From NCBI GenBank assembly GCA_012797845.1, contig JAAZOH010000038.1:11919-75918 (forward strand): a stretch of DNA of 64,000 nt, in the 5' to 3' direction. The notes under the pieces were generated by a model that saw nothing but the letters and a program-made list of their open reading frames with translations, was not told where the DNA came from and did not search any database. The translations under genes and the position numbers were made by a program. Shown here piece by piece: positions 2,833 to 51,359 of this stretch. The DNA is from Candidatus Beckwithbacteria bacterium (GTDB taxonomy: Bacteria > Patescibacteriota > Microgenomatia > UBA1400 > UBA1449). How positions within the stretch are numbered: the stretch's first letter is position 1; every line of letters starts with the position of its first letter.

Positions 2833-3642
2833 ATGACAGAAGATTTTAGAAAAATAATGGCAGCTAGGGCAGCAGGAGTAACAATTATTACAGAAGAAGA
2901 AACTGCAAGAGAAAGACAAAAAACCGCAGAAAGATTTCAAAGGATGGTTGAAAGAGCTGGGGTTATGGATGTACTAGAATTTGCTGCTTTAAGTATAGAA
3001 AAATATCACAGCAGTAGAGACAATGCTGGAGATGTAAAAGTTGGAAAAGCAGCTGTTGATAGATTGGGAGTACAATTTATGGGTAAACACATGCTTTGCC
3101 GACCTAACCGTTTTAATAATACTACTGTTGGTTTAGAAATGTATTTTCGAGACAGAGATGGTGATATCGTTAGTAAACAACCAATTTTTGCAATTACCAT
3201 TGATCCCAAAATGAGAGACACAGATGTTTTTATACTTTCATGTGCAATCAGGGAACTAGGATCAAATTCACATTTTACTGATTCTGGAGTATATTTTCAA
3301 AGGTATGAGTGTGGTACGAGCGCTGATTTTGCCAATGCTATGATGAGTTTTTTAACAGCACCAAAAGTAGATAGGTCAGCCTATAATAGCCAAATAACTC
3401 TCCGTTATGTTGTAGAACAATATGGGGCAGAACATATACCATCTTTTTATGAATATGATTGTTTGGGAGATATTCCGATAGAATTAGTTGCTCCTAACGA
3501 TTCCCCCTTAATAAAAATTGCAGAAAATCTTGCTTACTCTTGTCCTACAATAGGACACCATCTTGGTAAACCAATGGCTATACTCAGAGATGCTAACATA
3601 TTTCGGTTAACTGCTCCCATTGTACTTAAAGGAAGAAATTAA
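2833..3642 (+). CDS. hypothetical protein
   Basis: 269-aa ORF preceded by AAAGGA RBS-like sequence. Visibly less AT-rich than its neighbours. Confidence 0.45.
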   Translation: MTEDFRKIMAARAAGVTIITEEETARERQKTAERFQRMVERAGVMDVLEFAALSIEKYHSSRDNAGDVKVGKAAVDRLGVQFMGKHMLCRPNRFNNTTVGLEMYFRDRDGDIVSKQPIFAITIDPKMRDTDVFILSCAIRELGSNSHFTDSGVYFQRYECGTSADFANAMMSFLTAPKVDRSAYNSQITLRYVVEQYGAEHIPSFYEYDCLGDIPIELVAPNDSPLIKIAENLAYSCPTIGHHLGKPMAILRDANIFRLTAPIVLKGRN

Positions 3643-3883
3643 TATATACCTTCAAGACCAAAAGACTTGTTGGGGTAGTTGCTCAAAAAAGAAGAACCTT
3701 AACTTTAACTGGCGAATTGTTTTACTGCCCGACCATTTGGCTGATTACATTGTCATTCACGAACTGTGTCACCTGAAGGAGTTTAGTCACTCTCGAAGAT
3801 ACCGGAACTTAATGGCAAGTGTGCTGCCTAACTATCAAGAGCTTATCACAGAATTAAAAACCAGTGGTTTATCGTTAGTATAA
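3620..3883 (+). pseudogene. C-terminal fragment of YgjP/DUF45 (M48-like HExxH) metallohydrolase
   Basis: 87-aa ORF containing WRIVLLPDHLADYIVIHELCHLKEFSHS, which matches the HExxH-bearing C-terminus of YgjP-family proteins. The N-terminal ~140 aa of the family are absent. Confidence 0.55.
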
Positions 3884-4080
3884 TCAAGCTGTTAAATAAT
3901 TGAGGTTTTGACTGTAAAGGAACTCACGATAATAAGTTCCCACATAGTCGATCAGTCCAGCCCCCTCAAGGAATACCCTATCAAACTATATCTATAGAAA
4001 GCTGGATTCGAACTGGAAAAGAAAAAATTTGTTTTTCAGACTTATGATACAATTAGACAAGTAATAAATGTAAATTCTAA

Positions 4081-4099
4081 TAGCTGCCAGGTGCAGCTA
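4081..4099. promoter_or_regulatory. palindrome tagctgc-N5-gcagcta upstream of MSNEDL paralog 1
   Basis: 7-bp perfect inverted arms. The same element occurs at 6909-6929 before paralog 2. Confidence 0.5.
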
Positions 4100-4846
4100 T
4101 TTTTTACACTTATGTCAAATGAAGATCTTAGAGGCAAGTTGCGAAAACAAGTAACTGATCATGCTGATTTTTTGTTGGCTGATAAAGAGCAACAAAAAAG
4201 AATTTTACTAGCAGAAGAGCGAAAACGTATCAGACAGATGGTAAAGGAGCATGAACTCATGAAACAACTAGAAGTGGCAGATGTGTTACAGATGCTTGTT
4301 GATATTGCAAATGAGGACTCAATAGATATGCAACCACTTGCTGAGGTAATTCAGGAAGGAAATGTAAAACATTGCGAGAATGGAAGAGTTGAAGTTATTA
4401 CTGGCATGCTGCCAAACCAGGGAACTAGAGTTAAAAAAGGAATATTGGCTGTAATACCGGAATTTAGAACAGAAAAAAATAACCCAACTTTACTATTTGC
4501 TAGAAGATCTCTGGATAGTAAATATGAACTATATTTACCAGAAAATTGCATTGTTTATCAACAAGTTGAATGTTCTAGCTCTGATCAGGTGGGAGAAGTA
4601 GCATTGCAAATGCTTTTACTTGATAAAAGCATGGAAGACTTATATAAAGAATCTTTTGGACGTTTTGCTCTTATTGGCTTTGGTGTTTCCCAATTATCTT
4701 TTAGTAGTAACCTTTTAGACTCAAAGATTTTTAGCCAAATGTCATTATCTCTTTTTGCAACGTTTGGGAAAACTGCCACTAGTGTAGTTAGTCGAATGAG
4801 AAAAAGTAGCCATATCTACGATAGAGCAAAGAACTATTTACTTTAA
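4091..4846 (+). CDS. MSNEDL-family protein, paralog 1 (possible ATP-grasp substrate/partner)
   Basis: ORF track starts at a GTG inside the palindrome. The likely true start is the ATG at 4112 (MSNEDLRGK...). Shares N-terminus and internal motifs (LxxLVxxANxD, LLFARRSLD/LLIARPPKD) with the ORF at 6941. Confidence 0.55.
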   Translation: MQLFFTLMSNEDLRGKLRKQVTDHADFLLADKEQQKRILLAEERKRIRQMVKEHELMKQLEVADVLQMLVDIANEDSIDMQPLAEVIQEGNVKHCENGRVEVITGMLPNQGTRVKKGILAVIPEFRTEKNNPTLLFARRSLDSKYELYLPENCIVYQQVECSSSDQVGEVALQMLLLDKSMEDLYKESFGRFALIGFGVSQLSFSSNLLDSKIFSQMSLSLFATFGKTATSVVSRMRKSSHIYDRAKNYLL

Positions 4847-4939
4847 ATAATTAGAATATAAAATTTTGACATCCCAATTAGTTTAATTATGTAGTTTTTT
4901 ATATCAAAATTAATTTACTCTGTTCAGAAATATTTTTAA

Positions 4940-5956
4940 ATGCAATTTGAAAGAGAATTGAAAACACAAGAAATTGAACCCGGGACAAGTGGTCTTGTTT
5001 TACTTGTCAGTAGGCAGTTTGATCCTCATGTTGATTTTATTATTGAAAAGTTGAGATCAGAAAACATCCAGTTTGCCAGATTTAACACTGAAGATTTTCC
5101 AAGAAATACTTCCGTAAGTTTGTATTTGGGAGATGGCGAGACATCTGGATTATTGGATGTGCCCAACAACTTACCTTTTTTGCTAAACCAAACCAGATCA
5201 ATTTTATACAGGAGACCAGCAGAACCTAATCCACCAGATAATTTAACCAAGGGCTTTGAAGAATTTGTGGTTTCTGAGAGCAAATCAGTTATAAAAGGTT
5301 TATGGTCGTTACCCGATGTTACTTGGGTAAATTACCCGGAAGACAATCGAAGAGCTGCTATCAAACTAGATCAGCTAAGACAGGCCCAAATACTGGGTCT
5401 TTCTATTCCCAAAACTCTAGTCTCCAATAATATTATTGACATTAGATCCTTTTTTGACCTGTGTCATGGAAGCATGATAGTAAAACCTTTAACCGTAGGA
5501 AGTATCGAAGAAGATGGTATATATAAAGCTTTCTATACTAGCAAAGTTGAACCGGAACATTTAGACCAACTTGGCCCGGATAATAGATGTCCTTATGTAT
5601 TTCAAGAAAATATTCCCAAGGAACTAGAATTGAGAATAACTATTGTTGGAAATAGTGTGTTTGCAGCCGAAATCTTTTCTCAAGAACAAGAAGGAGCTGA
5701 GACCGATTGGAGAAAAAAGTGGGAAGGCTTACGCTACGGAATTCATGAGCTTCCCGAGGATATTAAAAATAAATGTTTGAAATTAGCTAGACATTATAAT
5801 CTAAATTTTGGAGCAATAGATATGATAGTAACTCCTAGAGGTGAATATGTTTTTTTAGAAATCAATCCAAATGGTCAATGGGTTTGGATAGAGCTTGAAA
5901 CTGGATTACCAATATCAGAAGCTATGATAAAACTTCTTTCTGAGAATAAGCACTAA
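4940..5956 (+). CDS. ATP-grasp ribosomal peptide maturase (MvdD/MvdC-like, graspetide family)
   Basis: N-terminal pre-ATP-grasp pattern VDFIIEKLRSENIQFARFNTEDFP... and C-terminal GAIDMIVTPRGEYVFLEINPNGQWVWIELETGLPISEAMI, matching the microviridin-type ATP-grasp hallmark. Confidence 0.7.
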   Translation: MQFERELKTQEIEPGTSGLVLLVSRQFDPHVDFIIEKLRSENIQFARFNTEDFPRNTSVSLYLGDGETSGLLDVPNNLPFLLNQTRSILYRRPAEPNPPDNLTKGFEEFVVSESKSVIKGLWSLPDVTWVNYPEDNRRAAIKLDQLRQAQILGLSIPKTLVSNNIIDIRSFFDLCHGSMIVKPLTVGSIEEDGIYKAFYTSKVEPEHLDQLGPDNRCPYVFQENIPKELELRITIVGNSVFAAEIFSQEQEGAETDWRKKWEGLRYGIHELPEDIKNKCLKLARHYNLNFGAIDMIVTPRGEYVFLEINPNGQWVWIELETGLPISEAMIKLLSENKH

Positions 5957-6465
5957 GGTTTATTGAGTTTTTTTACAGTTTTAAATGTTTCTTTTAAAGG
6001 AGAAATATCAAATTTTTTTCGCAAAGAATCAGGAATGATATTTTCATAATTAGAAATAACCCATTTGTCTTTTTTAAGCTCGAATTGTGTTACAAAAAGT
6101 TGTGGCCTGGAAATGCTTAAAAGAAATCTGTCTATGGCTAAGGCCATATAATTTTTACACCAGTCATCTCCTAATACGCTTCCAATAGAATAAAGGGTAA
6201 CAGCCAAAGCATAATCATTATAATTAGAACCGTGATGAAAAAAATGCCCTGCCCGAAAATAATCATCTGCTGTTTTTAGTTCTCCCTTTTTAAGCATTTT
6301 CAAAACTAGGTCTTTTATTTCTACTTCTTCTTGGTAAAGCTTTTTAATCAAATTCTTTTGTTTCTTTAAGTCAAACACATATCTTTTTTTTTGAACCTTT
6401 TCAAATAGTTTAATAAGTTTTTTGTTTGAATTTGGAGATTTATTAAAATAACCCTTTTTTACCAT
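5953..6465 (-). CDS. hypothetical Lys-rich protein
   Basis: 170-aa ORF convergent with the ATP-grasp gene. Confidence 0.4.
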   Translation of the reverse strand: MVKKGYFNKSPNSNKKLIKLFEKVQKKRYVFDLKKQKNLIKKLYQEEVEIKDLVLKMLKKGELKTADDYFRAGHFFHHGSNYNDYALAVTLYSIGSVLGDDWCKNYMALAIDRFLLSISRPQLFVTQFELKKDKWVISNYENIIPDSLRKKFDISPLKETFKTVKKLNKP

Positions 6466-6533
6466 ATAAATAAATTCTTACAACCTTATCTAAAGGTAAT
6501 GCAAGATTTTGATTAAAATATTTTATGTTTCAC

Positions 6534-6725
6534 TTAATCATCTCGACCTTGATCAATTTGTGTGACATCTACGCTGATATGTGTTGGAACAGTACAGATT
6601 GTTCCAGCTGCATTAGCATGTCCCGCAGTCCATGTTTGACTATCAGGATCATATTGTCCTTCAACAGGAGCTAGATCAGCAATTGCAATGTCTTCAGTAA
6701 ACTGGGAAACAAATTCTTTTGACAT
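6534..6725 (-). CDS. small peptide, candidate RiPP (graspetide) precursor
   Basis: 63-aa ORF with a strong SD (AGGAGGTGA) 8 nt upstream of the ATG. Acidic leader-like N-terminus and a Thr/Ser/Asp-rich C-terminal half. Lies ~600 bp from the ATP-grasp maturase. Confidence 0.5.
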   Translation of the reverse strand: MSKEFVSQFTEDIAIADLAPVEGQYDPDSQTWTAGHANAAGTICTVPTHISVDVTQIDQGRDD

Positions 6726-6908
6726 AACTTCTCACCTCCTTGTAAACTTTTGCTTATACTTTCAGTTTTGCATTATGTTTAAAAAATATTTAAAAGTCAA
6801 ATAAACACAAAAAAGGCTGAGCCATGAATAGAGTTCAGTGAGTTAAAAGCGAAAATTAAGGAGAAAAATATGATATAATTCTCCTTATTATATTAATAAT
6901 AAATAGAC

Positions 6909-6929
6909 TAGCTGCCAACTGTGCAGCTA
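6909..6929. promoter_or_regulatory. palindrome tagctgc-N7-gcagcta upstream of MSNEDL paralog 2
   Basis: Same inverted-repeat arms as 4081-4099, followed by a conserved tattttt...ATG..aatgaaga block. Confidence 0.5.
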
Positions 6930-6940
6930 TTTTTGTAAAT

Positions 6941-7663
6941 ATGAGCAATGAAGACTTAAAATGTAAAGCATTGGCTGGTCTAAAAAAAGGCCAACAAGCA
7001 AATTCAACAGTAGAAGAAGCAAAAGAAGCTAAGGCTCGATTTAAAAAAGATCAGTTGAGAAAATTACAAGTTCAAGAAACATTGACTTTTTTAGTTGAAG
7101 CTGCAAACACTGATGATCCTGAATTAGGAGAAATTAGAGAAGCAATGCATGTAAGATTTGGAGAACAAAAATTATCAGTTGAATATAACGAAGACCAGAC
7201 TATTGTATTGTTACAAAATTCTAGTAAAAAGACTGTAATGGCTATTGGTGTAGAAACCTATGGTCGAGATAATAAAAGTAGAGGTTCGTTGTTAATCGCT
7301 AGGCCTCCAAAAGATATCAAAGCAACATTTCGCAGAGACACATCTGAACCAGTATTGTTTATGAGAAAAAAATGTATAGATACGGGCGCTGTTGCGTCAA
7401 GTGTAATGGAATTTATAACTACTGATCAAGTTACTGAAGGTAGATGTCCAAGTGATGTTGGAGAAGATTTTTTGAGTAAATACCCTGGTTTGAGCTATGA
7501 TTACGCTGTTTTTGAAGAAATGTATGAGTTAGCATATCCCGATACTGATTCAGCTCCAAAATTAAATATATCATATAGTTATACAAATGATCTTCCTATG
7601 CATGTAGGCTGTAATAGCTATGTTCAATGGATGTTTGGAAAATATTTCGCAAATCGAGCTTAG
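6941..7663 (+). CDS. MSNEDL-family protein, paralog 2
   Basis: 240-aa ORF starting MSNEDLKCK. Distant paralog of 4112-4846. Confidence 0.55.
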   Translation: MSNEDLKCKALAGLKKGQQANSTVEEAKEAKARFKKDQLRKLQVQETLTFLVEAANTDDPELGEIREAMHVRFGEQKLSVEYNEDQTIVLLQNSSKKTVMAIGVETYGRDNKSRGSLLIARPPKDIKATFRRDTSEPVLFMRKKCIDTGAVASSVMEFITTDQVTEGRCPSDVGEDFLSKYPGLSYDYAVFEEMYELAYPDTDSAPKLNISYSYTNDLPMHVGCNSYVQWMFGKYFANRA

Positions 7664-7902
7664 TATAAACATTAAATTTTTGTATCAAAGTAATCTCCTT
7701 TTGCATTTATTCATATAATCTTAATAGTGTAACAAAATAAAAAAACATGAACCAAGAGACTGTATTTATTTTTAATACAAGCTTATTTTGGTAAAAAAAT
7801 TTAACTAATTAAGTATTGAGCCAAATAAAAAGTTCTGACATAGTCCACTAGTGCCAGCAGCCACGTATAATCTTGAGAGATTGACCGTACTCTCTAGTTA
7901 CT

Positions 7903-8421
7903 ATGAATGAAGCTACTGTTTCGATTTTTACAACCTTAACCATATTATTAATCGTAGGATTTGTAATCAAATTATTCTTAAGACTTGTTTTTCAAAAATT
8001 TCCAAGAACATCCAAGTCAATACATACTTATTTGTATAAAACTAGAAGTTTTTTTCTAACCAAGCCAGAGCATGAGCTTTTTGATATTTTAGTAAAAAAC
8101 TTTGGAGATACATATTATATTTTCCCCCAAGTCCATCTATCTTCAATTTTTAACCATAAAATTAAAGGTCAAAACTGGCAAAGTGCTCTTAATCATATAG
8201 ATAGAAAATCTATCGATTTTCTGTTTTGTGATAAAGCTTATATTAAACCAATCTTAGCTATTGAACTTGATGATTCTAGTCATCAAAGGGAAGATAGAAT
8301 TATTCGAGATAGTGAAGTTGAACAGAATTTTGAAAATGCAAACTTACCCTTATTACGGTTTAATAGCCAGGAAAGATTTCACAACGAAGAAATGTTTGAG
8401 AAAATTAGAGAAAAACTTTAA
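7903..8421 (+). CDS. DUF2726 domain protein (PD-(D/E)xK-like nuclease fold) with N-terminal TM
   Basis: SIDFLFCDKAYIKPILAIELDDSSH...LPLLRF pattern typical of DUF2726. Confidence 0.5.
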   Translation: MNEATVSIFTTLTILLIVGFVIKLFLRLVFQKFPRTSKSIHTYLYKTRSFFLTKPEHELFDILVKNFGDTYYIFPQVHLSSIFNHKIKGQNWQSALNHIDRKSIDFLFCDKAYIKPILAIELDDSSHQREDRIIRDSEVEQNFENANLPLLRFNSQERFHNEEMFEKIREKL

Positions 8422-8543: not shown

Positions 8544-8996
8544 ATCTTCTCATAAGGTTTTTGTCTAAAGCAGACATCATTTCGATGTCTGAATTGTCGT
8601 GCCATCATTTCCAATACCTGTTTAGGAAGCAAACACCGCAACCATTGTCCAATATGTTTATGGTCTAGACATCTCGATCTTACTATTCCTGGTGATAGAA
8701 AGTCTCGTTGTGGCTCAAAAATGAAACCAATAGGATTAGTATTTAAACATATTACCTATAATCCATTTACTGATAAGACAAGTGGTGAACTGATGATAGT
8801 ACATCTATGTCTAAACTGTGACAAAATCTCGACAAATAGAATTGCCGGAGATGATAATGCTCAAAGTATTATTCAACTACTAGATGAGCCAAAATCGCTA
8901 GATCCTACTTTAATTCATAGATTACATTGTTCAAACCTTACCCCACTTACCCGTCAAGATGAGCAACAAGTCTTGGCTTGTTTATTTGGTTATTGA
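8544..8996 (+). CDS. RNHCP domain protein; N-terminal part lacks a canonical start codon
   Basis: First ATG is at 8721. The in-frame upstream translation (no stop back to 8544) reads FRCLNC...ANHCPICLWSRHLD, which matches the RNHCP motif, but contains no ATG/GTG/TTG. Confidence 0.5.
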
Positions 8997-9055
8997 GGTT
9001 TTTTTATTGATTAATAAACTCAATATTATTTACAATTTTATTGTAAAATAGCTCT

Positions 9056-9715
9056 GTGAATTTTTTCTTGAAAAGCTTTCTATTTTTACTCCTGGGTTCT
9101 TTTTTATCTGTTTTAGTATTTATTTTGCTAAATAATGATATTTTTAGTGCAACCTTTGTTTTTGAAGGTAATAAAGAGCAATATCAGATAACAGATTTTT
9201 CTTTGGAGGATGCTCCAGCCGAATCATTGCGCGGAACTATTGCCAGTAGAAATGGGGAAATTTTGTGGCAATCCAGAATTGCTACACAGTCTTCAGTATT
9301 AGTAGGCGACAAAATACTTCAACAGGGAGAAATTTTAGAAACTGGGAAAGACGGAATAATTGAAGTCAAATTTGTTGATGCTGCCTTAGTTCATATGTTT
9401 GAGAATACTAAGGTTGAAATCGTTCAGACTTTGCCAGTCAATTTAGTTTTCAATCAATCTAGGGGTACAGTTACATATAAAAATTTGGGAGAAGCTCCGG
9501 TTTCGATTCGATCTATCAATCTGTTGGTAAATTTGACAAAAGGTTTGATAGATATTGATGTGGACGATCAAACGGGAGAAGTAAGCTTATCTTTAGTTGA
9601 AGGCAAGGCCAGGGTAGCATATAACAGTACGGATTTTGAAAGTAAGGTTTGGGATTTGGAAGCAGGAGACAGTTTTTTATATGACAGCAATGAAAGAGAA
9701 GGTTTTTTTGAATAA
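9056..9715 (+). CDS. membrane-anchored FecR-like domain protein (copy 1)
   Basis: GTG start, N-terminal TM, beta-rich FecR-like pattern. ~78% aa identity to 18478-19137. Confidence 0.55.
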   Translation: MNFFLKSFLFLLLGSFLSVLVFILLNNDIFSATFVFEGNKEQYQITDFSLEDAPAESLRGTIASRNGEILWQSRIATQSSVLVGDKILQQGEILETGKDGIIEVKFVDAALVHMFENTKVEIVQTLPVNLVFNQSRGTVTYKNLGEAPVSIRSINLLVNLTKGLIDIDVDDQTGEVSLSLVEGKARVAYNSTDFESKVWDLEAGDSFLYDSNEREGFFE

Positions 9716-10849
9716 TTACTTATAAGTTTTGACAGGTTCCAAGATAGTTTGTCCCTCATAACCAAGTGCCCAAAAAGCCATACCACCAAGCTTATATTTT
9801 TTAACAAGATCAATTTTTTCTTGCACGGCTTGAGCATCTGGATAAAAAATCTGGTGATAGGTTTTATACTCTTGATCGTAATAAATAAGGTATGATTCTT
9901 GAGAATTAGCCTCTATTTGCGCGCTGCAACTGGCACAACTAGCCAAAAATTCCTCTACCCTTTTATTACTAGCTGTAATGCCTGAGCCAGGCAAGGTGGC
10001 AGATCTAGGATAGTCAGTCAGGGTTTCCCATTCATAGCCGTATAAAGGAATGCCAAGAATAATTTTATTTTTAGGTAAAACCTCTAGTGCTTTTTGAATA
10101 CCGGTTTCAACATCAAACTCACTATCAATTCCGACTCCACCTACTGGTGCTACTGCTCCACTCACTTGTGAGCCAGGATAATGGTAATCATAAGTCATGA
10201 GGACAATATAGTCGACATACGGTTCAACTGCTTCAAGATTGATCAGTCTGCTTTTGATCAGATCTGTAGGACTGGCATCAATGGTCAGGGTTGTATTAAT
10301 CCGACTTTTGACTTCTTTAATAAAAGCAGTGAAATGTAGTCGGGCTGATTCTGAAGCATATAACACATTTTCGATATCAAGATTAAGATCAGTAAATCCA
10401 TATTGTTCCATGATTGGGTTAATCTGTGAAACTAAAGTTGCGGCGTGAGAAGCAGGTTCAGAGACTAATTCATTGATAGTATCTGGATCACCACTAAAAA
10501 TTAAAAGGGAGTTTTGTAAATTTTTGGAAGGAGTAAATTTCCCAGAATTTAGAGCTTGCCAGCCCGGTTCAGCTTCTCCTGGATTGGTATATTTTTGAAT
10601 CTTACCATCTCCTTCAACAGTCAGTCCAAAATAAGTAATATTGGTCAAATATTGGGAATAGTCTTTGTCAGTTTTACCTATAAACCAATATGGAAGAAAA
10701 CCGATAATATGTTGCTTATTTTGTTTTTGAAGAGGAGAAAGAATAATTGATTTGGGATTTTTATCAACGAGGTAATTTAATAAAAGCAACGTAAAGGTAA
10801 ATCCTAAAATCGTTACGAAGAAAAAAACCAGAATACTTTTTATTTTCAT
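9716..10849 (-). CDS. glycoside hydrolase family 18-like protein, membrane anchored (copy 1)
   Basis: N-terminal TM; DLNLDIE (DxxDxDxE-like), MTYDYHY and GGMAFWALGYE motifs of GH18. Confidence 0.6.
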   Translation of the reverse strand: MKIKSILVFFFVTILGFTFTLLLLNYLVDKNPKSIILSPLQKQNKQHIIGFLPYWFIGKTDKDYSQYLTNITYFGLTVEGDGKIQKYTNPGEAEPGWQALNSGKFTPSKNLQNSLLIFSGDPDTINELVSEPASHAATLVSQINPIMEQYGFTDLNLDIENVLYASESARLHFTAFIKEVKSRINTTLTIDASPTDLIKSRLINLEAVEPYVDYIVLMTYDYHYPGSQVSGAVAPVGGVGIDSEFDVETGIQKALEVLPKNKIILGIPLYGYEWETLTDYPRSATLPGSGITASNKRVEEFLASCASCSAQIEANSQESYLIYYDQEYKTYHQIFYPDAQAVQEKIDLVKKYKLGGMAFWALGYEGQTILEPVKTYK

Positions 10850-10946
10850 CTATTTTATTTTAACATGGCCACCTTTAGAAACTGTTTAATATAAAGTATC
10901 AGGAGAGTATTTAGAAAAATATTACAGTACTTATTAAACTCAAAAT

Positions 10947-11750
10947 TTATTTTAATCTTCTGAACATTGCATATACCCGACCATGATCTTTGGAAAATGT
11001 TAAAGTGATTGCATAATTATTTTCTTCCCACCTTAAGCAGTTGTTTTCATCAATACTAAAACTTAAGTTGTCTGCATACTTTTCTTTATAGTCTTGGATA
11101 AATTTATCCATATTTGCTTTATCTACCGTCCAATATTGAGTATATTCAATCTCTCCGCCATTTTGATTGAGTTTACCGTAACTATTTTCATGTTCCTGCC
11201 AGCTAGGATCAATTTCGATTATATTGGGATAATCAGCATAATATTTGTTAGTTTTAGTAAATTCTTTTTCTGGTACATAGACTTGTAAATAAGAAGTGCC
11301 ATCACCGTAATCAGATACTGAAACAATATATGATCCAATAGTCCCCTCTACCCTAGAATCGCTTGAAGTGTCTTCATTTGCTTCGTTCATTAAAGATCGG
11401 TAATAGTTAAGAAGCTCAATCTGTTCAGCTGCCGAAGCAAAAACCACATTGTAATAGTTTTTTTGAGTGGGTAAAAAAGTTTCTATATTTACAGGATCAT
11501 CATTGACGAAATATTTAATTGATTCAATTCTCTTGCTTTTATATAAGGGAACTAAATTTTGGGGATAACCATCCAATAAACTAGTCATAAAATCATCAGA
11601 TTTATTAGCCGATATTTGTTTGGAAGTATTTTGAGTTTGAGTTTTTTGATCAAAATTGTTTTTTGAATAAGGATGTGTGTTTAAAAATATTAAAGTTCCT
11701 ACTCCAAGGATTAATAAAAATACTATGACAATAATAAATTTTGATTTCAT
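10947..11750 (-). CDS. hypothetical secreted protein
   Basis: N-terminal signal/TM. A fragment homologous to its 3' end lies at 22395-22535. Confidence 0.45.
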   Translation of the reverse strand: MKSKFIIVIVFLLILGVGTLIFLNTHPYSKNNFDQKTQTQNTSKQISANKSDDFMTSLLDGYPQNLVPLYKSKRIESIKYFVNDDPVNIETFLPTQKNYYNVVFASAAEQIELLNYYRSLMNEANEDTSSDSRVEGTIGSYIVSVSDYGDGTSYLQVYVPEKEFTKTNKYYADYPNIIEIDPSWQEHENSYGKLNQNGGEIEYTQYWTVDKANMDKFIQDYKEKYADNLSFSIDENNCLRWEENNYAITLTFSKDHGRVYAMFRRLK

Positions 11751-18278: not shown

Positions 18279-18477
18279 AGTATTTATGACCTTTGATCAG
18301 CTCATGCTTTTATTGTTATTGTTCCTATGCAAAAACTCTTCATTGTCTTCTCTTAATATCGACCTGTTCTCGAGTTATTAAGTTTTAGATTGTCTGTGAA
18401 AATAATAATATTTTTAGAGATATTTTCATTAATTAACAAGCTCAATATTATTTATTATTATATTGTAAAATAGCCTT

Positions 18478-19137
18478 GTGAATTTTTTCCTAAAAGGCTT
18501 TCTATTTTTACTATTAGGTTCTTTTCTCTCAGTTTTAGTATTTATCTTACTAAATAATAATATTTTCAGTAAAACCTTTGTTTTTGAAGGCAATAAGCAG
18601 CAATATCAGCCAACAAACTTTTCTTTGGAAGATGCTCCAGTAGAATCGCTGCGAGGGACTATTGCCACTAGAAGCGGAGAGATTTTGTGGCAATCCAGAG
18701 TTGCGACAGAGTCTTCAACATTAGTTGATGACATACAGTTTCAGCAGGGAGAAATGGTAGAAACCAAGAAAAATGGGACAATTGAAGTCAAATTTACCGA
18801 TGCCGCACAGGTTGATATATTTGAAAATACTAAGGTTGAAATAGTCCAAACCTTACCGGTCAATTTGGTTTTTAACCAGTTCAAAGGCAAAGCTCAATAT
18901 AAAAATTTAGGAGTAGCTCCAGTTTCAGTCAGGTCTATGAATCTGTTGGTAAATTTAGTTGAAGGTTTAATGGACATCGATGTGGACGATCAAACTGGAG
19001 AAATCACTGTAACTTTAGATGAAGGACAAGCCAAAGTAGCGTATAACAGTGCAGAGTTTGAAAGTCAGATTTGGGATTTGGAAACAGGAGATATATTTAT
19101 CTATGACAGCAATGAAAGACAAGGTTTTTTTGAGTAA
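18478..19137 (+). CDS. membrane-anchored FecR-like domain protein (copy 2)
   Basis: Paralog of 9056-9715; GTG start. Confidence 0.55.
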   Translation: MNFFLKGFLFLLLGSFLSVLVFILLNNNIFSKTFVFEGNKQQYQPTNFSLEDAPVESLRGTIATRSGEILWQSRVATESSTLVDDIQFQQGEMVETKKNGTIEVKFTDAAQVDIFENTKVEIVQTLPVNLVFNQFKGKAQYKNLGVAPVSVRSMNLLVNLVEGLMDIDVDDQTGEITVTLDEGQAKVAYNSAEFESQIWDLETGDIFIYDSNERQGFFE

Positions 19138-20271
19138 TTACTTATAATTTTTAACCGGTTCTAAAATAGTATTTCCTTCATAGCCAAGGGCCCAGAAGGC
19201 CATACCACCCAGCTTATATTTTTCAACAAGATCAATTTTTTCTTGGATAGCTTGAGCATCCGGATAAAAAATTTGGTGATAGGTTTTATATGCTTGGTCA
19301 TAATAAATAAGGTATGATTCTTGGGAATTAGCTTCTATCTGGGCACTACAAGTGGCGCAACTGGCCAAAAACTCCTCTACCCTTTCATTACTAGCTGTGA
19401 TGCCTGAACTAGGAATGGTGGCTGATCTAGGATAGTCAGTTAGGGTTTCCCATTCATAACCATATAAAGGAATGCCAAGGATAATTTTATTTTTGGGGAT
19501 AACTTCTAGCGCTTTTTGGATACCAGTTTCAACATCAAACTCACTATCAATTCCAACTCCACCTACTGGGGCTACGGCGCCACTTACTTGTGAGCCAGGG
19601 TAATGATAATCATAAGTCATGAGGACAATATAATCGACATACGGTTCTACTGTTTCAAGATTGATCAGCCTACTTTTGATTAAATCTGTAGGGCTGGCAT
19701 CAATAGTTAGGGTTGTATTAATCCGACTTTTAAACTCTTTGACAAAGGCAGTGAAATTTAATCGAGCCGATTCTGAAGCATAAAAAACATTTTCAATATC
19801 AAGATTTAGATCAGTAAATCCATACTGTTTCATAATTGGATTAATTTCAGAAGCTAAAGTTGCAGCATGAGAAGCTGGCTCGGAAACTAATTCGTTAATA
19901 ACGTCCGGATCACCGCTAAAAATTAAAAGGGAGTTTTGTAGATTTTTGGAAGGAGTAAATTTACCGGAATTTAGAGCATGCCAACCCGGCTCAGCTTCAC
20001 CGGGATTAGTATATTTTTGAATACTACCATCAGAATTAACAGTTAATCCAAAATAAGTAATATTGGTCAAATACTCTCTATAATCTTTGTCAGTTTTATC
20101 AAGGAGCCAGTATGGTAGAAAACCAATAATATGCTGGGTGTTTTGTTTTTGAAGAGGTGAAAGAATAACTGATTGAGGATTTTTATCAACGAGATAATTG
20201 ACTAAAAAGAAAGTAATGGCAAATCCTACAATAGTTATAAAGGTAAAGATCAGGATGTTTTTTATATTCAC
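19138..20271 (-). CDS. glycoside hydrolase family 18-like protein (copy 2)
   Basis: Paralog of 9716-10849 with the same GH18 motifs. Confidence 0.6.
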   Translation of the reverse strand: MNIKNILIFTFITIVGFAITFFLVNYLVDKNPQSVILSPLQKQNTQHIIGFLPYWLLDKTDKDYREYLTNITYFGLTVNSDGSIQKYTNPGEAEPGWHALNSGKFTPSKNLQNSLLIFSGDPDVINELVSEPASHAATLASEINPIMKQYGFTDLNLDIENVFYASESARLNFTAFVKEFKSRINTTLTIDASPTDLIKSRLINLETVEPYVDYIVLMTYDYHYPGSQVSGAVAPVGGVGIDSEFDVETGIQKALEVIPKNKIILGIPLYGYEWETLTDYPRSATIPSSGITASNERVEEFLASCATCSAQIEANSQESYLIYYDQAYKTYHQIFYPDAQAIQEKIDLVEKYKLGGMAFWALGYEGNTILEPVKNYK

Positions 20272-20616
20272 CCACTCATTTTAACATGGCCTTTTTAAAA
20301 AGATATTAAATTTGGAACTTTTAAAGTTAAACATTAAAAACCCTTTTTGAGATATATGAAAATTATTCTTATGAAACAAATGCCGCAAATTCTAATGAGC
20401 AAAAAGGCCAGGGGGATTAAACTTTGTTTTAATAAGAATAGCTGGTTATAGCGATTATAACTAGAAAAATGGAAATTATAACTTTATGTAAAGATAATAA
20501 CGATATCTTATAAAGACTAAGAAGCCAATAATTTTTGGTTTAAAAAACTAACCCTAAAAATACAAATTCGGATGTAGCTACTTATTTAAGAATGGATAAA
20601 AATTCAGCTGCCATTT

Positions 20617-47045: not shown

Positions 47046-47070
47046 TAAAAAAGCCTCCGGTTTGGAGGCT
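47046..47070 (-). terminator. intrinsic terminator hairpin (gcctcc-ggttt-ggaggc plus U-run) inside the MFS 5' leader
   Basis: 6-bp GC stem followed by TTTTTT on the minus strand, ~100 nt upstream of the MFS start. Confidence 0.55.
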
Positions 47071-47214
47071 TTGTTGATCAAACTATATTACGGTAATTTT
47101 TAATCAGTAGCCTCCTTGTGTTTTAGGTAATCAACACCAAACACCATACAAATAAGGGTGTTTTCTGAGCGATTGGTTTGATAAAGACTACGTTTGCCTA
47201 TCATATGACTAATT

Positions 47215-50472: not shown

Positions 50473-51312
50473 ATGAAAAAAATAACCTTGTTAGTCTTCG
50501 CTATTATATTTTTAGTTTTACCTACAAGTGCCTATGCCCAGTGGGATGATTGTATGAAAGGTTTAGAAAATGATCCCTATCCCGGTAGTTGTGGCCGTTA
50601 CATTGACACTGACGGTGATGGAATTTGCGATCATAGTCAACCAGCTCCTGAAGATAGAGAAACTACTATTAGTACTAGTAGTACAAGCGAAACCACAAAT
50701 GCTGTGAGTGGAGTTGACCCCATGGAGTTAATTACTGGTGAGGATTTAAAATACAAAACTGTGGCTGAAGTTGCCCAGCTTTATCAGCTTAATCTTGATG
50801 AATTCATCAACGCTTTAAAAGAAAAAACTGGCATCAAGGCTATTTCGGCAAACACCAGCTTCATCTATTTGCATGACAACTATGGTCTTTCGCCTAATAC
50901 AGTCAAAACTATTGCAACAGCTTTGTGGGAGCAAAACCAAGGAAACGCTCAAGCCTTGTCTCAGGTTCAGACCACAACTACTCAACAGCAAACTAAAAAT
51001 AATTACTATTTTTTGCTCCTTAGTTTGGGTTTAATAGGAAGCTATTTGGTTACTTTTGTACTCTCTAGATTAAACATTATTTCTACTATTAAACATCGCC
51101 AGATTTGGAATATCTTTTTAAGTGCCACTTTTTTGGCTACCGGACTTTTAGGAATTTTACTAGTGCTACGACTTTCATATGGATTAGTTATTCCCCTACC
51201 TTTCAATATGTTGTTCTGGCATGTAGAAACCGGGATTGCTTTTACTATGATTGCTCTGTTTCATGTGCTTTGGCACATTCCTTACTATAAGAGCATTTGG
51301 CCAAAAAAATAG
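50473..51312 (+). CDS. secreted protein with C-terminal TM segments
   Basis: Signal peptide MKKITLLVFAIIFLVLPTSAYA. Confidence 0.45.
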   Translation: MKKITLLVFAIIFLVLPTSAYAQWDDCMKGLENDPYPGSCGRYIDTDGDGICDHSQPAPEDRETTISTSSTSETTNAVSGVDPMELITGEDLKYKTVAEVAQLYQLNLDEFINALKEKTGIKAISANTSFIYLHDNYGLSPNTVKTIATALWEQNQGNAQALSQVQTTTTQQQTKNNYYFLLLSLGLIGSYLVTFVLSRLNIISTIKHRQIWNIFLSATFLATGLLGILLVLRLSYGLVIPLPFNMLFWHVETGIAFTMIALFHVLWHIPYYKSIWPKK

Positions 51313-51359
51313 AGATCAAAATATATTTGATCTCTATTTTAAAATAATTGCCAATCTTT

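Follow-up and report, generated by a model that had tools for sequence, protein, structure and literature searches.

Two orphan paralogs in a Candidatus Beckwithbacteria genome, GYA49_04540 (paralog 1; 4112..4846, + strand, 244 aa) and GYA49_04560 (paralog 2; 6941..7663, + strand, 240 aa), whose products both begin with MSNEDL, are each preceded by the same palindrome and an abutting run of T residues, and the arms of the palindrome are kept identically in spite of saturating divergence between the genes. Comparison of the two leaders points to a lineage-private, cis-regulatory leader hairpin of a familiar kind rather than to a new mechanism. The reading that we tentatively favor is that the palindrome forms a cis-regulatory RNA stem-loop, which may act as a promoter-proximal leaky terminator or attenuator within the ~50-nt leader of both paralogs. 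Coordinates refer throughout to the window, the 64-kb stretch of the 81.5-kb contig that was analyzed.

The palindrome of paralog 1 (TAGCTGCCAGGTGCAGCTA) spans positions 4081-4099 (+ strand) and consists of arms TAGCTGC and GCAGCTA around the 5-nt loop CAGGT; that of paralog 2 (TAGCTGCCAACTGTGCAGCTA) spans 6909-6929 (+ strand) and has the same arms around the 7-nt loop CAACTGT, such that the arms are identical and the half-site spacing is unequal (N5 at site 1, N7 at site 2). Both are present as given in the original prediction, which also placed a T-rich stretch and then an ATG about 12 nt beyond the palindrome. This is correct: a T6 tract (4100-4105) abuts the right arm of palindrome 1 and a T5 tract (6930-6934) abuts that of palindrome 2, on the sense side alone at both sites, and the gap from right arm to ATG is 11-13 nt (12 and 11 nt to the ATGs at 4112 and 6941, respectively). 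The 6-nt spacer between T-run and ATG is unconserved (ACACTT at site 1 vs GTAAAT at site 2), and at site 2 the upstream gene is divergent. A pattern search of the window finds two matches to the palindrome, compared to 0.00 expected from 100 dinucleotide-preserving shuffles, and when up to two mismatches and loops of 3-12 nt are permitted, the scan gains just three further matches, weak and unrelated, two of them within annotated genes. No additional copy with two or fewer mismatches is present in a comparable setting, either in the window or in its flanks, for which 5.9 kb upstream and 9.2 kb downstream were taken from other assemblies of this organism. The genome thus has exactly two copies across ~79 kb (the window plus ~15 kb of flanks), and within this span the palindrome is not a dispersed repeat of the REP or MITE-like type.

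Several other identities for the palindrome were considered and discarded. A coding explanation is excluded because the frame of the right arm differs between the copies, and an in-frame upstream GTG (4091) is available at paralog 1 only. Integron attC, REP, and dif-like sites are similarly rejected, with just two copies, no recombinase gene in the vicinity, and no match to the core motifs of such sites, and the earlier suggestion of a recombination site is unsupported on the same counts of copy number and recombinase. Searches of phage and plasmid DNA with the region 3600-7700 gave no match, and neither Rfam nor tRNA scanning detected anything in the window.

Identity between the two noncoding regions is patchy, with a shared 9-nt tract (TAGCTGCCA) followed by a shared 14-nt tract, GTGCAGCTA plus TTTTT (GTGCAGCTATTTTT), for a total of 23 identical noncoding bases. 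A third shared block, TATGATAYAATT or TATGATA(C/T)AATT, which was not reported previously, is located further upstream at 4043-4054 and 6869-6880. The leader between this block and the palindrome cannot be aligned between the paralogs, and nor can the spacer preceding the ATG; alignment of the upstream regions therefore confirms the arms and the T-run, and adds the upstream block, but the remainder of the leader is not conserved. Downstream of the ATG the pattern is different. Comparison of the start regions (AATGAAGATCTTA for paralog 1 and AATGAAGACTTAA for paralog 2) shows that codons 2-6, encoding S N E D L (TCA/AGC, AAT/AAT, GAA/GAA, GAT/GAC, CTT/TTA), differ at six of 15 bases, all synonymously, and the MSNEDL start is thus conserved as peptide and not as nucleotides. 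The near-identical coding block aatgaaga(t/c)ctta described in the original prediction was slightly misread, even though the SNEDL peptide is indeed the same in both.

The extent of background divergence gives these identities their meaning. The paralogs share 27% amino acid identity by protein alignment, low as had been proposed although somewhat above the 20-25% estimated, and identical codons are used at 22 of the 54 identical residues, compared to 27.7 expected under independent codon choice; synonymous sites between the paralogs are saturated. The two genes are not similar at the DNA level in a blastn self-comparison of the window, and they share no further identical tracts. With neutral sites saturated and no wider DNA similarity, the 23 identical noncoding bases are evidently under selection. 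The proposal that a ~55-nt block reflects selection therefore holds for these bases, but the block is not a single nucleotide unit, and its coding part is conserved at the amino acid level.

The upstream shared block contains a predicted extended -10 box at each site, identified by match to consensus: TGATACAAT (4045..4053, + strand) within TATGATACAATT (4043-4054) for paralog 1, and TGATATAAT (6871..6879, + strand) within TATGATATAATT (6869-6880) for paralog 2. These boxes are near-consensus (TGATAYAAT) and are positioned 27 nt (site 1) and 29 nt (site 2) upstream of the palindromes; the TGnTAnAAT signature precedes many genes in the window. Transcription is predicted to start at approximately position 4060 for paralog 1 and 6886 for paralog 2. 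Order and spacing are conserved at both sites, with the extended -10, 27 or 29 nt, the hairpin, T6 or T5, the unconserved 6-nt spacer, and the ATG. There is also a weak -10-like sequence, TATTTT, composed of the last TA of the right arm and the T-run, which ends 8 nt before the ATG of paralog 1 and 7 nt before that of paralog 2 (6928-6933, + strand). Its spacing fits leaderless geometry, but it has neither the TG extension nor the A-rich core of the leaderless-type genes in the window, and judged by the TGnTAnAAT standard of this genome the upstream TGATAYAAT box is predicted to be by far the better promoter. We note that at site 2 only, an inverted repeat, AAGGAGA / TCTCCTT (6858-6864 and 6880-6886), brackets the -10 box, and this could serve as an additional operator or form a stem in the RNA of read-through transcripts.

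As originally proposed, no Shine-Dalgarno (SD)-like motif lies between the palindrome and the ATG at either site. The accompanying argument that the hairpin might consequently influence initiation has no force, however, as this genome hardly uses SD sequences. Across a crude collection of 64 genes in the window, eight starts are preceded by SD-like 4-mers, compared to 5.4 expected by chance, and three by GGAG or GAGG, compared to 2.3 expected; SD motifs are not enriched, and their absence is the rule. For at least 10 genes in the window, a TGnTAnAAT-type box is separated from the start codon by 5-8 nt, a spacing of the leaderless type (examples are the starts at 9056, 10849[-], 18478, 20271[-], 50393[-], 52351, and 57363[-]), and for many others it is located 16-60 nt upstream and the A/U-rich leader contains no SD. 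These patterns suggest that leaderless mRNAs are frequent in this genome; our literature searches on SD or leaderless usage in Candidate Phyla Radiation (CPR) bacteria found nothing directly usable. T-runs near start codons occur at background frequency in the window, and a T-run by itself is therefore weak evidence of function.

The palindromes are predicted to form stable RNA hairpins. Hairpin 1 (4081..4099, + strand) has a 7-bp stem, or 9 bp with the flanking AA/TT, a 5-nt loop, and an RNA folding energy (dG) of -11.5 kcal/mol; hairpin 2 (6909..6929, + strand) has a 7-bp stem, a 7-nt loop, and a dG of -10.1 kcal/mol. Each is followed directly, with no gap, by its U-tract (4100..4105 and 6930..6934, both + strand). 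Between the predicted start and the U-tract of the nascent leader, the stems have pairing probabilities of ~1 at both sites, and folding of the same segment found no competing structure or antiterminator. The 5' mRNA hairpin raised as a possibility in the original prediction is the reading that we favor too. In extended minimum-free-energy folds the flanking A/U-rich segments lengthen the helix toward the AUG, with z-scores of -2.6 and -1.4. The anatomy is that of an intrinsic terminator, with a G+C-rich stem of 7-9 bp containing four G-C pairs, loops of 5 and 7 nt, and an abutting U5-6, but the position is not, as both copies lie between a promoter-like box and a start codon and not at the 3' end of a transcription unit. 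The leaders also do not resemble regulated attenuators or riboswitches, with no mutually exclusive antiterminator, no Rfam match in the window, and only ~20 nt preceding the hairpin, which leaves no room for a riboswitch.

A generic terminator scan flags site 2, and a dedicated scan flags both sites. Only four intergenic hairpins in the 64 kb are intrinsic-terminator-like, including both leader hairpins, and intrinsic terminators seem to be rare in this genome. The other two appear to be ordinary terminators, one (47051-47071, - strand; -14.3 kcal/mol) after a small promoter-proximal open reading frame (ORF; 47203-47099, minus strand), and the other (51306-51340, both strands; about -16.5 kcal/mol) a perfect, bidirectional hairpin between convergent genes. 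The leader hairpins are somewhat weaker than these, as expected for a leaky terminator. In DNA pattern scans, TAGCTGC-N3-9-GCAGCTATTTT is present in at least 120 unrelated bacterial genomes, with the source genome absent among the matches listed, and in 73 viral contigs; among the matches listed, most are located just after gene 3' ends and about half are bidirectional. A longer 22-nt version has four metagenome matches, likewise after gene ends. This location across unrelated genomes indicates that the sequence class is a terminator-type hairpin arising independently. Thus, the search for further copies proposed earlier shows that the element is not frequent within ~79 kb of its own genome, although hairpins with a T-run of this type commonly serve as ordinary terminators in unrelated genomes. 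The unusual aspects here are the leader position and the exact retention in two ancient paralogs. One 143-kb viral contig, IMGVR_UViG_3300030098_005028 (L173), contains TAGCTGC-TAC-GCAGCTATTTT three times within a ~58-nt tandem/dispersed repeat at 9370-11100; we rejected this as a related element, because it belongs to an unrelated tandem repeat.

In the attenuator mechanism that we tentatively propose, each paralog would be transcribed from its near-consensus extended -10 promoter (TGATAYAAT), and ~20 nt into the transcript the 7- to 9-bp G+C-rich hairpin would fold, with U5-6 immediately following. The resulting leaky terminator would lower and coregulate expression of both paralogs, and possibly that of the ATP-grasp gene behind paralog 1. 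Read-through, or the function of the hairpin generally, may further depend on a trans-acting factor that reads its sequence. A plain terminator requires structure and not an exact sequence, whereas here the stem and two loop-edge bases per side (CA...GU) are the same in both copies despite saturating divergence; because the arms are identical there is no covariation between the copies. These 9+9 identical bases exceed the needs of a terminator, and with no cis antiterminator found, we infer a trans-acting reader. Among the considerations that count against the attenuator, a sequence-reading partner must be invoked without any candidate, the leader is very short and has no antiterminator or Rfam match, T-runs are at background frequency near start codons, and the organism would be relying on a type of hairpin that is rare in the window (four intergenic in 64 kb). 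A more specific version, in which a dedicated factor binds the hairpin sequence-specifically as RNA (or as hairpin DNA) and together with it constitutes a private antitermination switch for both orphans, is decidedly doubtful. If correct, both orphans, and perhaps also the neighboring graspetide-type ATP-grasp cluster, would respond through this switch to some signal, for instance contact of a CPR symbiont with its host, and the regulator-leader pair would be without described relatives.

The same features can be accommodated in other ways. Perfect 7-bp arms with the same sequence after saturating divergence suit recognition by a sequence-specific protein, and the inverted repeat could be a DNA operator bound by a dimeric transcription factor, possibly the product of one of the paralogs or a regulator encoded elsewhere, although we regard this as somewhat unlikely. 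Binding could provide a roadblock at approximately +22 to +42 of the upstream promoter, or could cover the spacer/-35 region of a weak leaderless TATTTT promoter beside the ATG; the right arm overlaps TATTTT, which ends 7-8 nt before the ATG and fits the leaderless geometry of the window (-10 at 5-8 nt before the start), and confinement of the element to these two genes is reminiscent of a small regulon. TATTTT nonetheless has neither the TG extension nor the A-rich core of this genome's -10 boxes, and the 2-bp difference in spacing (N5 vs N7) would rotate the half-sites by ~70 degrees relative to each other, which dimeric regulators rarely tolerate. Unequal loops on identical stems are tolerated by an RNA hairpin but not by DNA half-sites with fixed spacing. 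Conserved bases 8 and 9 are also asymmetric (CA on the left, GT on the right), and searches of Pfam, NCBIfam, and PADLOC identified no DNA-binding domain in the paralogs or adjacent genes, with helix-turn-helix (HTH) genes ~9.5 kb upstream. It is unlikely, as a further alternative, that the stem-loop and U-rich tract act purely post-transcriptionally, setting mRNA stability or SD-independent translation without termination, perhaps by shielding the A/U-rich start region from upstream pairing or by providing a U-rich landing site for ribosomes. Such a role would be in keeping with the position of the hairpin, which stops ~12-13 nt short of the AUG and borders the ribosome binding region on its 5' side, with the lack of SD enrichment in this genome, with folds that extend toward the AUG, and with a possible third paralog (2833-3642) that has an SD-like AAGGA in place of the hairpin. 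However, any bacterial RNA polymerase should terminate to some extent at a hairpin with an abutting U5-6, stabilizer hairpins act at the 5' end and this one is located elsewhere, the z-scores of the extended folds are modest, and the exact sequence conservation would go unexplained.

The arrangement of a strong promoter with a terminator 45-50 nt beyond it is also the anatomy of a small RNA gene, and it is conceivable, if very unlikely, that the upstream box drives a noncoding RNA of ~45-50 nt that ends at the hairpin, with the genes themselves expressed leaderless from TATTTT. The cassette formed in this way might be recombinogenic, with the repeats serving as a short homology patch for deletion or reshuffling of the 2.8-kb segment between the copies. 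Leaderless-type starts are indeed common in the window (at least 10 genes), and the direct repeats bracket paralog 1 and the ATP-grasp/peptide module, within a variable island where genes for restriction-modification and nucleases are also found. Yet TATTTT is a poor -10 by the standard of this genome, the putative small RNAs lack conservation in their 5' parts, homologous recombination would need tracts longer than the identical ones of 9 and 14 nt to be efficient, and the copies number just two, with no recombinase gene nearby. Lastly, the match could have no function and be a relic of duplication or the product of a short gene conversion, and it is true that there are only two copies, in paralogous positions, with nothing outside this genome for comparison. 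We consider this extremely improbable, because synonymous sites are saturated and the adjacent codons differ at six of 15 bases, the leader flanking the conserved blocks and the pre-ATG spacer are unalignable, and conservation coincides with recognizable elements (the -10 box, the two arms, and the T-run) instead of forming a single contiguous tract, a patchiness that argues for selection. The diverged flanks also offer no homology with which conversion could start, and gene conversion, which the original prediction had allowed for, is thus not a likely explanation.

The attenuator, if this is what the hairpin is, controls genes of an unusually isolated pair. Both paralogs are recorded only from a single CPR metagenome-assembled genome, and word-indexed searches together with an HMMER profile search of 1.84 billion representative proteins recovered no homologs other than the two themselves. 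A scan of viral contigs found no relatives, neither protein has an assignment in Pfam, NCBIfam, or PADLOC, and an AF2 model of paralog 1 built from the two-sequence alignment (pLDDT 43) is too poor for a fold search. Between the paralogs are an ATP-grasp gene resembling RiPP maturases of the MvdD/SAV_5884 type (4940-5956, + strand), a gene coding for a 170-aa protein with no family assignment (5953-6465, - strand), and a gene for a 63-aa Thr/Asp-rich peptide (6534-6725, - strand), which has the only strong SD seen nearby (AAGGAGGTGA). This three-gene set (4940-6725) looks like a graspetide-type module flanked by the MSNEDL paralogs, and the combination of an ATP-grasp gene, a convergent gene of ~175 codons, and a 67- to 85-aa peptide recurs beside the closest ATP-grasp homologs (L126, L128, and L130). 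It resembles CPR graspetide loci that encode a conserved protein of unknown function (PMC8939145). The neighborhoods of the ATP-grasp homologs contain no MSNEDL-like gene and no comparable leader hairpin; a 273-aa gene upstream in L130 was examined as a possible relative of the paralogs and is unrelated.

Other features of the region are worthy of mention. The gene at 2833-3642 (+ strand; 269 aa) is a possible third, very distant paralog, whose product starts with MTEDF and has weak collinear similarity to paralog 2 (BLASTP E value of 0.006; hhalign E value of 0.0025 and probability of 12% with a two-paralog profile). It has a promoter-like box of the same type as the paralogs, TATGTTACAATT (2776-2787), a T6 run before the ATG, and the SD-like AAGGA, and is without the palindrome. 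Between this gene and paralog 1 is an 87-aa ORF (3620-3883, + strand) containing HELCHLKEFSH, presumably the HExxH motif of YgjP/DUF45-type metallopeptidases, and this is probably a truncated gene remnant. Genes for a NERD nuclease-domain protein and a DUF2726 protein are at 871-1623 and 7903-8421, and upstream of window position 1 (L121, 1-5900) there are genes for a type I restriction-modification HsdM, a ParB_N-N6_N4 methylase, and two small HTH proteins, one of the XRE type and one of the MerR/excisionase type. The paralogs therefore reside in what looks like a variable island of defense- or mobile-like character. Further into the window, a 1.9-kb duplication with 83% identity (8995-10870 and 18417-20291) carries a 219-aa membrane-anchored FecR-like gene and a convergent GH18 (chitinase-like) gene, with leaderless-type promoter regions.

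To our knowledge, there is almost nothing experimental on gene regulation in CPR bacteria, and the leader hairpin provides a clean and easily synthesized test case for whether promoter-proximal termination occurs in this group. It also bears on gene expression where SD sequences are hardly used. There is nothing unexpected in the proposed mechanism, and selection on the element is supported by the sequence comparison; the wider impact is limited because the element belongs to a well-known class, is present in two copies in one metagenome-assembled genome, and putatively controls proteins of unknown function.

Comparison with described systems places the element among familiar types, with departures from each. 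Like the operators of dimeric repressors, it has perfect 7-bp arms in inverted orientation, lies in a promoter region, and is restricted to a few related genes, but the spacing varies between 5 and 7 bp, a sense-strand T-run abuts the repeat, and no regulator gene is nearby. Promoter-early stem-loops (PeSLs) are mobile regulatory cassettes of T4-type phages, and there are parallels in the repeated stem-loop and promoter-like module before small, fast-evolving genes in a variable region, and in the direct repeats that bracket a cassette; the differences are that here the order is promoter, stem-loop, and ATG, that the copies number only two, that the genome belongs to a cellular (CPR) organism and not to a phage, and that nothing points to shuffling. 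With 5' stabilizer hairpins and SD-independent leaders it shares a stable hairpin and an A/U-rich, SD-less leader close to the start codon, but in the predicted transcript it is set back from the 5' end and has a terminator-type U-tract. The stem sequence is also kept exactly, a degree of conservation that plain terminators do not need. Promoter-proximal terminators are well established, both in the protein-dependent antitermination leaders of bgl/sac, pyr, and trp in Bacillus and in LoaP-type read-through. The elements described here differ from these leader attenuators in having only ~20 nt before the hairpin and no antiterminator or protein-binding RNA motif that we could find, but are like them in the G+C-rich stem of 7-9 bp, the loop of 5-7 nt, the adjacent U5-6, the location between promoter and start codon, and the use of one element common to the genes proposed to be coregulated.
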